From Candidatus Helarchaeota archaeon (GTDB taxonomy: Archaea; Asgardarchaeota; Lokiarchaeia; Helarchaeales; RDOG01): a stretch of DNA of 64,000 bases. The notes beneath the pieces were generated by a model. It ran no database searches. It was given only the letters and a program-made list of their open reading frames with translations, and was not told the origin of the DNA. The position numbers and the translations under genes are program-made. The stretch's first letter is position 1, and every line of letters begins with the position of its first letter. This document shows, in pieces, positions 13,818 to 19,677 of the stretch. The DNA lies in assembly GCA_019058315.1 (NCBI GenBank), contig JAHPZH010000003.1, positions 73,669 to 137,668 of the forward strand. Direction: 5' to 3'.

Positions 13818-15074
13818 ATGTCAAAGAGAATAATTGGATTAGAATGTCCGGAATGTGGTATTATTTACCCACAGGAATTAACTCCCATTTGTAAAGAATG
13901 CTGGGGACCCTTAAAAATAAAATATGATTATGAAATAATAAAAGATAAAATTTCTAAAGAAAAACTAAAAAATCGTCCTTTTAATCAATGGAGATATATT
14001 GAATTATTACCCATTGAGGATTTAACTAAAATAATTTCACTTAATGATGGTGGTACTCCATTAATAAGATGTAAAAATTTAGAGACTGAATTAGGTCTTA
14101 AAGAATTGTATGTAAAAAATGATACCATTAATCCTACTTTATCATTTAAAGATCGTCCTGCATCAGTTGGAATATCTAAATGTAACGAATTAGGTATTAA
14201 TACTGTTGGTTGTGCCTCAACAGGAAATTTAGCCGCATCAACTGCCGCCCATGCCGCTAAAGCTGGGTTTCCTTGCTATATTTTTGTTCCAGCAAACATT
14301 GAGTATTCAAAGATTACACAAACAGCAATTCACGGAGTAAATATTATTGGTGTTAATGGAACATATGATGCTGCAAATCAGTTAGGTATTCTTGCAGCTG
14401 AAGTTTTTAAATGGGGGCTTTTAAATATAAACGTACGTCCCTATTACACGGAGGGCTCAAAAACAATCGCTTTTGAAACTTGTGAACAGTTGAATTGGGA
14501 ATCACCTGATAACATAATCATTCCAATGGGAAGTGGTGCATTATTATGTTCGGTCAATAGAGCTCTAATAGATCTATATAAAATTGGTTTTATTGAGAAA
14601 AATAATATCAAAATTTCAGGAGCCCAACCATCTGGATGCTCCCCAATTGTAACGTCCAAAAATACGAAATCTGATATTTTTCCAATTGAAAATCCAGACA
14701 CCTTAACAAAAAGTTTAGCGATAGGAAATCCAGCTAGCGGTTACGAGGCTATTAATGTAATAAATTCTACAAATGGTTGTGCAATTGCGCCTTCTGATTC
14801 TGAAATCACAGATGCGATAAAACTCTTAGCAAAAAGAGAAGGAATTTATGCGGAACCTGCAGGTGCAATTCCGTTAGCTGCTCTAATAAATTTAATTCAG
14901 TCAGGCGATATTTCCAAAGATGAAAGCGTTGTGTTACTTGTAACAGGAAATGGTTTCAAGGCTCATCAAACAGTAACGAATTTAATTTCAGAAATACCCA
15001 TTATCGAACCAACTTTAGATGCATTAGAGAAATATACAAACAAAAAGGAGGCGATAGCATTTGCCAAAAATTAA
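13818..15074 (+). CDS. thrC: Threonine synthase-like PLP enzyme (fold type II) with N-terminal Zn ribbon
   Basis: CPEC..CKEC, NPTLSFKDR (PLP lysine), ASTGN, EGSKT, PMGSG and EPAG motifs. True substrate uncertain. Confidence 0.8.
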   Translation: MSKRIIGLECPECGIIYPQELTPICKECWGPLKIKYDYEIIKDKISKEKLKNRPFNQWRYIELLPIEDLTKIISLNDGGTPLIRCKNLETELGLKELYVKNDTINPTLSFKDRPASVGISKCNELGINTVGCASTGNLAASTAAHAAKAGFPCYIFVPANIEYSKITQTAIHGVNIIGVNGTYDAANQLGILAAEVFKWGLLNINVRPYYTEGSKTIAFETCEQLNWESPDNIIIPMGSGALLCSVNRALIDLYKIGFIEKNNIKISGAQPSGCSPIVTSKNTKSDIFPIENPDTLTKSLAIGNPASGYEAINVINSTNGCAIAPSDSEITDAIKLLAKREGIYAEPAGAIPLAALINLIQSGDISKDESVVLLVTGNGFKAHQTVTNLISEIPIIEPTLDALEKYTNKKEAIAFAKN

Positions 15075-15345
15075 ATTTGTATTTTTTTCATCGCTCCATG
15101 ATTTAACAAATACAGAGTCAATTGAATTAGAAATAAATGGAACAGTAGAAAAAGCGTTGGAAAAGATTTATGATATTTATGGAGATGTATTTAAAAATAG
15201 AATTTTAGATAAAAATACGGGAAAAATTAAGAAATACGTCATAGTTGCTATTAATCGAAAAGATATTCGCCATCTCAATGGATATGATACAAAATTAAAT
15301 GAAGCAGATGAAATTTCAATACTTCCCGCTGTTGCAGGAGGCTAA
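15061..15345 (+). CDS. MoaD/ThiS/SAMP ubiquitin-like sulfur carrier
   Basis: 94 aa beta-grasp pattern ending ILPAVAGG (free C-terminal GG). Confidence 0.92.
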   Translation: MPKIKFVFFSSLHDLTNTESIELEINGTVEKALEKIYDIYGDVFKNRILDKNTGKIKKYVIVAINRKDIRHLNGYDTKLNEADEISILPAVAGG

Positions 15346-15371
15346 AATCTAAATTTGGTGATTTTTAATAA

Positions 15372-16025
15372 ATGATATCTCTTGAAACTAAAATAAATGA
15401 AATTATAAAGATTTTAGATACCAAATTTTCTCCTGTTGGAGTTAAAATTATACAAAATAATGATCAACATATCGATAATTCTTTTCAAGAAGTGAATGAA
15501 AATAAGAGATTTTGCTATTATGTACGTCAAGCTGCGTTAGGAAAGAAATTTATTATTAAGAATGATAACAAACTTGAGTGTAAGACCCCATATTATTGTT
15601 TAGGATTTAAAGAACCAAAATATGGTAATTTTGATTATAGAATTAGACCAGCTATTACAAAGACTGTTTTAATAGCTCCATTAAATAAATTTAAAATGAA
15701 CGTAGATAGCGTTGTTTTTATTATAAACGCAAAACAGTCAATGCTATTAGTTGATGCTCTACGAAGAATTCAAAAGAAGAAGATACAGGCAACTTTTGGA
15801 GTGTCTATGTCTATTTGTGGGGAAATTGTTGCGAATTCTATTGTGAATAAAACCCCTAGTTTATCTCTTCTTTGTTATGGGGCTCGAATTTATTCCGATT
15901 ATAAAAATAATGAACTTGCTCTAGGAATTCCATTTGTATTGTTTGATTCTATCTATGAAAATTTGAAAAAAATTGAGAAGTTACAGGAATTAGAGGAAGA
16001 ATTAAAAAATTTAGAGGTGAAATAA
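15372..16025 (+). CDS. DUF169 family protein
   Basis: SPVGVK, RFC..V..A, Q.M.L, SICG and SLLCYGAR.Y....NEL..GIP motifs. Confidence 0.75.
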   Translation: MISLETKINEIIKILDTKFSPVGVKIIQNNDQHIDNSFQEVNENKRFCYYVRQAALGKKFIIKNDNKLECKTPYYCLGFKEPKYGNFDYRIRPAITKTVLIAPLNKFKMNVDSVVFIINAKQSMLLVDALRRIQKKKIQATFGVSMSICGEIVANSIVNKTPSLSLLCYGARIYSDYKNNELALGIPFVLFDSIYENLKKIEKLQELEEELKNLEVK

Positions 16026-18242: not shown

Positions 18243-18254
18243 TTTTTTTACTAG

Positions 18255-18506
18255 TTGATAAAAATGGTAACAAAGAACTTAGAAGTAAGTCTAATTATTG
18301 ATTCTCAAGGAAAAATTTGCCCCTATCCCCTAATTGAAGTAAAAAAAGCAATAAAGAAGTTATCATCTGGTGAAATATTAAAATTAATTACAACAGATCC
18401 TATATGTCCTGATAATGTTGATTCATGGTGTGAAACTACTGGAAATACTTTGATTCGAGTCGATAATCACGGAGATAAAATTGATATTTACGTAAAAAAA
18501 GGTTGA
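18255..18506 (+). CDS. tusA: TusA/SirA family sulfurtransferase (second copy)
   Basis: DSQGKICPYP, TTDP and WC..TGN motifs. Start may be ATG 18264. Confidence 0.88.
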   Translation: MIKMVTKNLEVSLIIDSQGKICPYPLIEVKKAIKKLSSGEILKLITTDPICPDNVDSWCETTGNTLIRVDNHGDKIDIYVKKG

Positions 18507-18558
18507 TAGATTGTTGTGATTTTTCATTATAAGCTATTTTGAATTTTGAGCGAATTTT

Positions 18559-19677
18559 ATGCTATTAGATTATACAAAGTTAAAATTAAATTTATTAATT
18601 GATGGAGTTAATCCTGAAAATGAAAATTTAATAGGTAGAATGAGTGGTGCAGGGCCTACTGGAGGAAGATATTTTTTATTAGAAAATGGTTCATGTGTTA
18701 ATATTCCACTTTGGACGAAAAATTCAAAATATTCTAGGTTTTGGATAAAAAAATTTGATGATCAAAATAACTTATTTCAATTATTCGATGATAAGAAATT
18801 AATTACAACACTAAAATTAATTCCTAGACCTAAATTTTATGATTTAAACACTTCAGATAATATTAAAATGAGTAAAATTGCTATGTTACATGGAGAAAAT
18901 TGTCTTGCATCAACTATTTATCAAAAATGTATCTATTGGTCACAAGGAAAAGCTTGTGAATTTTGTGGAATTGAATTAAGTCTAAGGTCAAATTCAACTA
19001 TACTAGAGAAAACAGCTAAACAATTGTCCGAAGTTTTGGATAAAAGTATAAAGGAGGGAGTTTGTGAACATATGACTCTTACTACAGGGACTCCCAATAC
19101 TTCCGATAAGGGTGCAAAAAAATTCATGCCCATTTTGAAAGAATTAAAAAGGAAGTTTTCTGTTCCTATCCATATCCAACTTGAACCTCCAGAGAATCAG
19201 ATAATTATAGAAGATTTATATTCATCTGGAGCAGATACAATTGGAATTCATGCTGAAACTTTAGATCCTTTAATATTTCATAAAATCTGTCCAGGAAAAT
19301 CAGAAATTGGACTAAAAAAGTTTAAAGAAATATGGAATTACTCAGTAGAGATATTTGGTAAAGAACAAGTCAGTTCATATCTTTTATTGGGATTAGGTGA
19401 ATCTTTGGAATCACTTCAAAAAGGTGCACACTATCTTATAGAGCATGATGTGATTCCATATATTGTGCCAGTCCGTTCTATTTTAGAAACAAATTTCGAA
19501 AATGTTCAACAAAAAAATTTTCAACAAATATATAATCTATATAAAGATGTAAATAATCACTTAAAAAAGCATAATCTGGACCCTCGGCAAAATAAAGCAG
19601 GTTGTGTACGTTGTGGTGCATGTAGCATAATTACAGATTTTTACAACATAAAAATAGAATCGAAAAATGAAAATTAA
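18559..19677 (+). CDS. Radical SAM protein, MSMEG_0568-like (biotin-synthase-related)
   Basis: GAGPTGG, LHG..CLAST, the atypical Cx8Cx2C motif (CIYWSQGKACEFC), LTTGT and C-terminal AGCVRCGACS. Confidence 0.8.
   Translation: MLLDYTKLKLNLLIDGVNPENENLIGRMSGAGPTGGRYFLLENGSCVNIPLWTKNSKYSRFWIKKFDDQNNLFQLFDDKKLITTLKLIPRPKFYDLNTSDNIKMSKIAMLHGENCLASTIYQKCIYWSQGKACEFCGIELSLRSNSTILEKTAKQLSEVLDKSIKEGVCEHMTLTTGTPNTSDKGAKKFMPILKELKRKFSVPIHIQLEPPENQIIIEDLYSSGADTIGIHAETLDPLIFHKICPGKSEIGLKKFKEIWNYSVEIFGKEQVSSYLLLGLGESLESLQKGAHYLIEHDVIPYIVPVRSILETNFENVQQKNFQQIYNLYKDVNNHLKKHNLDPRQNKAGCVRCGACSIITDFYNIKIESKNEN

Follow-up and report, generated by a model that had tools for sequence, protein, structure and literature searches.

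Protein thiocarboxylates are known to donate sulfide to pyridoxal 5′-phosphate (PLP) enzymes that make sulfur amino acids. In Streptomyces albulus, such a route consists of MetM, MetO, MoeZ, and Mec, in which MetM, a homologue of threonine synthase (ThrC), makes homocysteine from O-phosphohomoserine and the thiocarboxylate of MetO (GapMind 2026; PMC13759103 / 10.1101/2024.10.14.618325). According to PMC13759103, this route was first described by Hasebe et al. (2024, Appl Environ Microbiol 90:e01247-24). An S-adenosylmethionine (SAM) riboswitch lies upstream of S. albulus metM (PMC12172450). Related systems are CysO/CysM/MoeZ/Mec of Mycobacterium tuberculosis and HcyS/HcyF/HcyD/MetY of Wolinella succinogenes (Krishnamoorthy and Begley 2011, as cited in PMC5764234). 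The subject of the present analysis is a ten-gene operon at positions 13818–19677 (+ strand) of a stretch of 64,000 nucleotides (nt) from a Candidatus Helarchaeota archaeon (GCA_019058315.1; G000:C11:73669-137668), which is called the window hereafter and whose coordinates are used unless a contig is named. The operon is likely to be an archaeal MetM/MetO route from a protein thiocarboxylate to homocysteine, extended by sulfur-supply genes of its own; when the MetM/MetO core is considered by itself, we regard the assignment as highly probable. The type of pathway, published in 2024, is already known.

The operon consists of ten open reading frames (ORFs); adjacent ones overlap by up to 14 nt or are separated by at most 52 nt. 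A preliminary description, made by a model from the letters of the window and its ORF list, had delimited these ten genes on the + strand, and all of them were found again at the same positions with Pfam and NCBIfam matches. It had also proposed a dedicated thiocarboxylate route to a thiol metabolite, in the first place cysteine or homocysteine made from O-phospho amino acids. This proposal gained support from a second thrC gene in the genome, from the separate clade into which the operon enzyme falls, and from the conservation of the gene set. The assignment of the core is based on four independent lines of evidence: the phylogeny of the ThrC paralogues, the near-universal pairing of enzyme and carrier, the control of bacterial members by SAM riboswitches, and the published biochemical precedent.

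The first gene (13818–15074, +) encodes the putative MetM-type PLP enzyme, a ThrC paralogue (PALP, 230 bits). Two features are invariant in 16 of 16 aligned homologues: one is the PLP lysine motif SFKDR (K111), and another is an N-terminal zinc ribbon of four Cys residues (C10/C13/C25/C28). A separate housekeeping thrC, whose existence the preliminary description had suggested checking, was found at G000:C11:796095; its product of 441 amino acids (aa) is 35% identical to the operon enzyme. The ThrC model TIGR00260 (cut-off, 167 bits) scores the operon copy at 269 bits and the housekeeping copy at 265 bits, and does not separate the two lineages. They were separated in a maximum-likelihood tree of 120 rows, with support from the Shimodaira–Hasegawa-like approximate likelihood-ratio test (SH-aLRT). 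The operon enzyme lies inside a clade of 97 rows (100% SH-aLRT), together with the paralogues of Streptomyces and other bacteria, and its branch is not unusually long. The canonical ThrCs, including the window genome's second copy and those of five other genomes, lie outside this clade, and the housekeeping ThrC clusters with the canonical ThrCs of Streptomyces, Dehalococcoidia, Solirubrobacterales, and Geoglobus. The five genomes reached through loci of the clade each carry a shorter, canonical ThrC as well (5/5). The outgroup of the tree is a more divergent, cysteate-synthase-like paralogue (C1:372271), and the cysteate synthase model TIGR03844 scores the operon enzyme at 89.4 bits, below its cut-off of 324.9. 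The phylogeny against true ThrC and cysteate synthase, which the preliminary description had recommended, places the operon enzyme apart from true ThrC and from the cysteate-synthase-like paralogue. Judged by this tree, the enzyme is not the housekeeping threonine synthase. A HomK-like kinase gene adjoins the housekeeping thrC, which makes a supply of O-phosphohomoserine plausible.

When an alignment of the operon enzyme was used to scan species-representative genomes, 80 loci were obtained, which span Thermoproteota, Nitrososphaerota, Bathyarchaeota, Geoglobus, Actinomycetota (four Streptomyces), Chloroflexota, Planctomycetota, Acidobacteriota, and others; with five Helarchaeota contigs added, 85 loci were available. 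In the tree, all of them fall within the clade of 97 rows. The source annotations seen name the genes of the clade "threonine synthase" throughout. In 10 of the 11 bacterial clade loci tested, including three of Streptomyces, a SAM-I riboswitch was found 60–240 nt upstream on the same strand, and the Streptomyces loci match the published description of the MetM locus. With bacterial members of the clade behind SAM riboswitches, the evidence points to homocysteine as the thiol product. The best ThrC matches in 11 relatives were also used as synteny anchors; no sulfur genes lay near them, and they were housekeeping or other ThrC paralogues.

The second gene (15061–15345, +) encodes a MetO-type ubiquitin-like sulfur carrier of 94 aa (ThiS, 44.9 bits; moaD_arch, 65.6 bits against a cut-off of 49.5). 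This gene overlaps the MetM-type gene by 14 nt, and its product has a free C-terminus that ends in PAVAGG, the Gly-Gly end being retained in all the Helarchaeota orthologues. In 72 of the 85 loci, from both bacteria and archaea, tblastn searches found a carrier homologue, usually also ending in PAVAGG, immediately 3′ of the ThrC-like gene. Since this adjacency extends across many phyla and is accompanied here by a translational overlap, the enzyme and the carrier appear to be a functional pair. In the Chloroflexota loci L083, L094, L097, and L099, a small ORF ending in GD(I/V)(I/L/V)EG or GDILAG lies between the ThrC-like gene and the carrier gene.

The fourth gene (16025–16834, +) encodes a MoeB/ThiF-type activating enzyme (E1) of 269 aa (ThiF, 273.8 bits over residues 12–246; PRK05690 MoeB, 271 bits against a cut-off of 266). 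Such a MoeB homologue comes next after the carrier in 22 loci, including those of ammonia-oxidising archaea and Geoglobus, the latter with the order enzyme-carrier-E1-TusA. Nitrososphaerota have a compact enzyme-carrier-E1 trio, with the enzyme annotated as threonine synthase (L073, L086, L088–L093, L095, and L141, loci of ammonia-oxidising and related archaea). According to Pfam, the operon E1 has no rhodanese domain, and rhodanese genes occur only elsewhere in the genome; the TusA and DsrE-like proteins of the operon may substitute for this absent domain. The invariant Cys residues of the E1 are C171/C174/C245/C248, which form Zn-type pairs, C188, and C267. The last of these, three residues from the C-terminus in the context CE(I/T) or CQT, is invariant in 6/6 Helarchaeota orthologues and might be a mobile persulfide acceptor.

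The preliminary description had made its reading depend on whether the gene set is conserved. The ThrC-like, carrier, DUF169, E1, and TusA genes were found together on other Helarchaeota contigs, as a five-gene core in L059, L060, L064, L067, L170, and L171 (the TusA of L064, missed by the gene finder, was recovered by tblastn). Downstream of this core, the contigs are of several types: L059 and L064 carry CysE-CysK; L060 carries CysE-CysK followed by a radical SAM orthologue (68% identity); L067 carries DsrH-DsrE-DsrF-TusA followed by a DUF2099 gene; and L170 and L171 show the complete ten-gene order with protein identities of 63–80%. The full order therefore occurs on at least two further contigs, and it was also found split over two contigs in GCA_013375355.1. 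The operon is a real unit, in which the five core genes are constant and the block downstream of them varies. The replacement of DsrEFH-TusA by CysE-CysK in three contigs (L059, L060, and L064) ties the locus to sulfur amino acids.

The third gene (15372–16025, +) encodes a DUF169 protein (PF02596, 115 bits), and the fifth (16841–17086, +) a TusA protein (74 bits), referred to as TusA type 1. Among the loci examined, only those of Helarchaeota have DUF169 between the carrier and E1 genes. Its residues C48, C70, C76, C149, and C168 are invariant in 10/10 Helarchaeota copies, and C48, C70, C149, and C168 are retained in 66 distant homologues. An exhaustive profile search of a library of 1.8 billion proteins gave 507 DUF169 cluster representatives, and distant relatives were found in three unrelated contexts, all with ThiF and TusA. 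One is ThiF-TusA-ThiS-DUF169-methyltransferase-DsrE, which lies beside another enzyme-carrier pair; another is CysE-CysK-PP-loop-AIRS-ThiN-DUF169-TusA-ThiF; the last is ThiF-TusA-SepCysS-like-DUF169-thioredoxin. Among the relatives in the ESM Atlas are four clusters of DUF169-ferredoxin fusions, and fused forms of about 330 aa carry an extra C-terminal part without a Pfam match. TusA type 1 has the signature GEVCPYTFV...DYPPAxENIPRS with an invariant C19, and the same subtype, 40–60% identical to the window copy, also stands beside DUF169 and ThiF in L165, L167, and L168.

The AlphaFold 2 model of DUF169 has a predicted local distance difference test (pLDDT) score of 95.4. Its fold gave no match at E ≤ 0.001 in a Foldseek search against the PDB, and the best Z of 5.8 in a wide VIA-align search is within noise; when the sequences of DUF169 and the radical SAM enzyme were searched against the PDB, nothing useful was obtained. 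A predicted complex of DUF169 with TusA type 1 scored 0.29 against a mark of 0.32, a value obtained without controls that is evidence neither way. In the literature, mentions of DUF169 were confined to its co-occurrence with SepRS and with selenium genes. From its gene context, we propose that DUF169 is a redox or sulfur-transfer helper at the E1/TusA step.

The sixth to eighth genes encode three DsrE-superfamily proteins in the order H-E-F. The DsrH/TusB-like gene (17120–17449, +) is matched weakly, below the cut-offs of both Pfam (20.9 against 24.4 bits) and TIGR03011 (29.2 against 49.2 bits); alignment with its orthologues suggests that it starts at the second Met (17135) rather than at the listed 17120. 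The DsrE/TusD-like gene (17440–17856, +; DsrE, 57 bits) and the DsrF/TusC-like gene (17868–18242, +; DsrE family, 55 bits; TIGR03010, 37 bits, under the cut-off) follow. Pfam DsrE is above its cut-off for two of the three subunits, and the NCBIfam equivalogs are all below theirs (TusD/DsrE, 35.8 against 89; TusC/DsrF, 37.2 against 94; TusB/DsrH, 29.2 against 49). The DsrE-like protein carries C89 and C92 (ACIKC), invariant in four orthologues, which are putative persulfide cysteines. The DsrH-like protein has no Cys, and its orthologues at the same position in L067, L170, and L171 have no conserved Cys; the DsrF-like protein and its orthologues in the same three contigs are likewise free of Cys. 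Although similar to the TusBCD/DsrEFH relay, the trio cannot be assigned to that complex. The ninth gene (18255–18506, +; TusA, 72 bits) encodes TusA type 2, which has a CPYP motif and two further conserved Cys residues, and is a subtype distinct from type 1. It is always located between DsrF and either the radical SAM gene or the DUF2099 gene.

The product of the last gene (18559–19677, +) is a radical SAM enzyme that belongs to TIGR04043 (MSMEG_0568; 313.6 bits against a cut-off of 303.7) and has a weak NCBIfam match to LipS2. The atypical Cys pattern that the preliminary description had read in it, Cx8Cx2C plus a C-terminal CxxCxxC, is real and invariant in the family: C115, C124-x8-C133-x2-C136, and C349-x2-C352-x2-C355 provide seven Cys residues that are invariant in 54 members. 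On this basis, the enzyme probably binds two [4Fe-4S] clusters. Its model (pLDDT, 91) is closest in fold to the solved structures of LipA/LIAS, HydE, and BioB. The operon copy and those that end the operon in L060, L170, L171, and L172 are part of a small group (63–80% identity) confined to Helarchaeota. A second TIGR04043 copy, about 47% identical, was found in 41/41 Lokiarchaeia genomes searched, unlinked to sulfur genes. In the window genome, it lies at G000:C6:171124-172209, after L21e-Rpb4-DUF655, and only a CoA (coenzyme A)-ligase-like neighbour recurs beside it in relatives. When the radical SAM gene was used as a synteny anchor in 20 relatives of the class, only this unlinked copy was seen. 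Among the annotated neighbours of either copy, there is no Nit1C partner (nitrilase, GNAT, AIRS-like, or flavoprotein). It is plausible that the radical SAM protein is a sulfur-inserting enzyme fed by the adjacent relay.

These proteins can be arranged in a proposed mechanism. By the established chemistry of its family, the E1 would adenylate the C-terminal Gly-Gly of the carrier. A persulfide on TusA type 1, possibly received through the DsrE-like Cys, may then turn the acyl-adenylate into the carrier thiocarboxylate; in the MoeZ of actinobacteria, this task falls to the rhodanese domain, which is absent from the operon E1. DUF169, as its gene context suggests, may accept or reduce a persulfide or acyl-disulfide intermediate. 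The ThrC-like enzyme would eliminate phosphate from O-phosphohomoserine and add the thiocarboxylate sulfur to give homocysteine, a step that we infer from the clade, the characterised Streptomyces enzyme, and the SAM-riboswitch control of bacterial members. The downstream block (DsrH/E/F, TusA type 2, and the radical SAM enzyme) probably delivers persulfide either to the same carrier or to the radical SAM enzyme. A wider scheme is conceivable, although as a whole we hold it to be doubtful. In this scheme, DUF169 would be a Cys/Fe-S redox protein, so far missing from the picture of archaeal sulfur activation, that takes the place of the rhodanese domain of MoeZ-type E1s together with a dedicated TusA subtype. 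It would load or reductively resolve the carrier persulfide and, in other settings, serve SepCysS. The radical SAM paralogue, for its part, would act as a LipA/BioB-like sulfur inserter whose auxiliary cluster is resupplied by DsrEFH and TusA type 2, yielding a second thiolated product.

Several observations weigh against reading the operon as an extended MetM/MetO route. Our link to S. albulus MetM passes through secondary citations and the Streptomyces loci that fit their description, and it is from gene context that we read what DUF169, DsrEFH, TusA type 2, and the radical SAM enzyme may do. The operon is not obviously needed, since the genome has other candidate homocysteine routes, namely, two HcyBio/DUF39 genes and one Cys_Met_Meta_PP enzyme. 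It is also an accessory trait: it is absent from 40/40 nearest species-representative genomes, and the MetM-type gene has a patchy distribution, found at E ≤ 1e-90 in only 8/301 Asgard genomes, the window genome included. A search for the DsrC family found no DsrC/TusE acceptor in this genome, which is 94% complete. Finally, as the preliminary description had said of MoaE, ThiG, and JAMM, Pfam and NCBIfam find none of the three among the ten operon genes, so the operon has no JAMM/Mec hydrolase. Prok-JAB (JAMM) genes are present at six places in the genome outside the operon, and the carrier, which already ends in Gly-Gly, needs no C-terminal trimming. The MetM-type genes of the other seven Asgard genomes (E ≤ 1e-90) are none of them more than 56% identical to that of the window. 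One further gene touches on the homocysteine routes: at G000:C9:182019-184757, the gene of a MoeB paralogue (54% identity with the operon E1) adjoins an HcyBio/DUF39 gene, which stands for the other homocysteine route of archaea. This may be another case in which an E1 is tied to the formation of homocysteine.

Among the alternatives, the one that survives best, which we nevertheless consider unlikely, is that the thiolated product is another: a coenzyme M (CoM)/coenzyme B (CoB)-type thiol for the alkyl-CoM reductase metabolism of Helarchaeota, or some other thio-metabolite. The ThrC-like enzyme would then use a different O-phospho substrate, and a C–S bond step would fall to the radical SAM enzyme. 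The genes for DUF2099 (methanogenesis marker 8), LarE, and a ThiI-like protein that flank the operon here and in sister contigs would fit such a product, as would the closeness of the radical SAM fold to the sulfur-handling LipA, HydE, and BioB and the presence of other homocysteine routes in the genome. However, the ThrC-like enzyme is an ordinary member, on a branch of ordinary length, of a clade with SAM-riboswitch-controlled bacteria, and its score with the cysteate synthase model is far below the cut-off (89 against 325). Moreover, the core is also found where alkyl-CoM reductase is lacking, for example in ammonia-oxidising archaea and Actinomycetota, and the sister contigs pair it with CysE-CysK, not with cofactor genes. 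The option of a CoM/CoB-like or novel cofactor, which the preliminary description had raised, gained no support for the ThrC-like enzyme and is conceivable for the radical SAM end.

A cysteine synthase resembling CysM/CysO, which would make cysteine from O-phosphoserine and the carrier thiocarboxylate, is very unlikely. A carrier thiocarboxylate working with a fold-type II PLP enzyme is, as is generally known, the logic of M. tuberculosis CysO/CysM; CysE-CysK genes are close by, and DUF169 is elsewhere coupled to a SepCysS-like gene. Nevertheless, the operon enzyme belongs to the ThrC fold family rather than to CysM/CysK, the riboswitch on the bacterial clade members senses SAM, which is a mark of methionine-pathway control, and the classical CysE-CysK pair already covers cysteine. 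Least probable of all is a second threonine synthase, with the carrier, E1, TusA, and DsrEFH forming a co-transcribed general SAMP/UbaA-type system for tRNA thiolation or molybdopterin: despite the TIGR00260 score above the cut-off, the several pathways served by archaeal pairs of E1 and ubiquitin-like protein (PMC2948915), and the ThiI-like gene nearby, it is opposed by the distinct housekeeping ThrC, by the adjacency of enzyme and carrier with their translational overlap, by the riboswitches, which are not expected on threonine genes, and by the lack of MoaE or a tRNA thiolase among the operon genes. The argument of the preliminary description against plain threonine, molybdenum cofactor, or thiamine synthesis is likewise supported.

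We return to the extended MetM/MetO route and to its genomic setting. The host genome comprises 5.79 Mb in 12 contigs, with a G+C content of about 30%, and the closest homologues of the window's proteins bear the name Candidatus Helarchaeota, an Asgard group. The region of C11 from about 53 kb to about 96 kb reads as a sulfur-metabolism island. About 33 kb upstream of the operon, there is a cysteine-desulfurase-like gene with an adjoining TusA paralogue; this desulfurase-like gene is a possible sulfur source for the operon, and we counted it in favour of the extended route. A CysE-CysK pair is located at G000:C11:69372-71125, about 2.5 kb before the window start and about 16 kb upstream of the operon, and it is 71% identical to the pair inside the operon of the sister metagenome-assembled genome L060.

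Upstream of the operon, a gene for an SsuA/NMT1-like, solute-binding-type protein is transcribed divergently (12647–13651, −; TIGR01728 SsuA_fam, 70.7 bits, under the cut-off). It has orthologues of 58–62% identity at the same position in L059, L060, L064, and L067, and NMT1_2 genes occupy the same divergent position in L066, L170, and L171. A LarE-type ATP-dependent sulfur transferase gene (9804–10610, +) and a methanogenesis marker 8 (DUF2099) gene (10625–11485, −) stand tail to tail, and this pair has a second copy at G000:C3:1429024-1430684 (63% and 69% identity). A DUF2099 gene adjoins the sulfur operon in every Helarchaeota contig seen, and ThiI-like, Thi4, and DUF6775 genes recur near the Helarchaeota operons. 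The ThiI-like PP-loop protein of the window (330 aa; 11601–12593, +) has matches only over its N-terminal 146 residues; its gene is also found between the DUF2099 and NMT1-like genes in L170 and L171. Farther upstream (2239–8188, −) lie three HGD-D (2-hydroxyacyl-CoA dehydratase-like) genes, a BcrAD/BadFG activator ATPase gene, and an HdrBC-like pair (CCG domain and 4Fe-4S dicluster), a block that is conserved upstream of the operon in L066. On the 3′ side of the operon, two ORFs of 179 aa (19781–20320, +) and 378 aa (20328–21464, −) were matched by neither Pfam nor NCBIfam. At the same positions 3′ of the radical SAM gene, L170 and L172 have genes of comparable size that likewise lack Pfam matches, and the 378-aa protein has a 55%-identical copy in L067.

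Rfam and tRNA scans found no Rfam element, riboswitch, or tRNA in the window. A TATA-like sequence, TTTATAAATA, is present at 13736–13745, 5′ of the first gene; in DNA with 70% A+T, it is not evidence of a promoter. A search for sequencing runs listed no RNA run with this stretch, and only DNA runs of sediment metagenomes contain it.

The new elements of this locus are the Asgard host, the E1 without a rhodanese domain, the inserted DUF169, the DsrEFH-like relay, and the recruited radical SAM paralogue; in the literature searched, we found no description of DUF169, of a DsrEFH/TusA relay, or of a two-cluster radical SAM enzyme for the MetM/MetO route. Of the sulfur-delivery arrangements for the carrier seen in this analysis, the present one is the most elaborate. 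It brings two uncharacterised families, DUF169 and TIGR04043, into operon contact with a pathway of defined chemistry, and the sulfur source with which the rhodanese-less E1s of archaea make carrier thiocarboxylates can now be tested in vitro. With the trio of DUF169, TusA, and ThiF also standing beside a SepCysS-like gene, the result would bear on the sulfur donor of tRNA-dependent cysteine synthesis. The recognition of MetM-type genes also shifts predictions of methionine prototrophy for Asgard archaea, Thermoproteota, ammonia-oxidising archaea, and many bacteria.

In comparison with the known systems, the locus is closest to MetM/MetO/MoeZ/Mec of S. albulus. In both, the PLP enzyme is a ThrC homologue that begins with a zinc ribbon, the next gene encodes a ThiS/MoaD-like carrier ending in Gly-Gly, and an E1 serves as activator of the carrier; the operon enzyme falls in the same clade as the Streptomyces loci with the described SAM riboswitch. 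However, the identity between the enzymes is about 40%, the host is an archaeon, there is no riboswitch, the E1 lacks rhodanese, and no Mec/JAMM gene is in the operon; moreover, the Helarchaeota operon adds DUF169, two TusA types, a DsrEFH-like trio, and a radical SAM enzyme. With CysO/CysM and HcyS/MetY, the locus shares the donation of sulfide from a protein thiocarboxylate to a PLP enzyme for a sulfur amino acid, and an E1-type activator. The PLP enzymes of those systems are CysM (fold II, CysK-like) and MetY (fold I), whereas here the enzyme is ThrC-like, and the JAMM hydrolase that both of them use has no counterpart in the Helarchaeota operon.

The sulfur-supply genes have their own nearest relatives. 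The combination of TusA with three DsrE-superfamily subunits in the order H-E-F, with the DsrE-type Cys kept, resembles the TusA-TusBCD(DsrEFH)-TusE(DsrC) relay of E. coli and Allochromatium vinosum; unlike in that relay, all three subunits are under the NCBIfam equivalog cut-offs, the DsrH-like protein has no Cys, DsrC/TusE was not found in the genome, and the likely acceptor is the ubiquitin-like carrier system or the radical SAM enzyme rather than MnmA or DsrAB. The radical SAM enzyme, just above the TIGR04043 cut-off, shares the variant Cys pattern of the MSMEG_0568 family (NitD of the Nit1C nitrilase cluster), but nitrilase, GNAT, and flavoprotein genes are absent from its neighbourhood, and the operon holds an additional paralogue of a gene present in every Lokiarchaeia genome searched. 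Finally, the archaeal SepCysS-DUF169 pairs (PMC8762117, SepRS clusters) contain the same four-Cys DUF169 subfamily beside ThiF and TusA; the sulfur consumer there is the tRNA-dependent cysteine synthase, whereas in Helarchaeota it would be a carrier-protein/MetM-type system.

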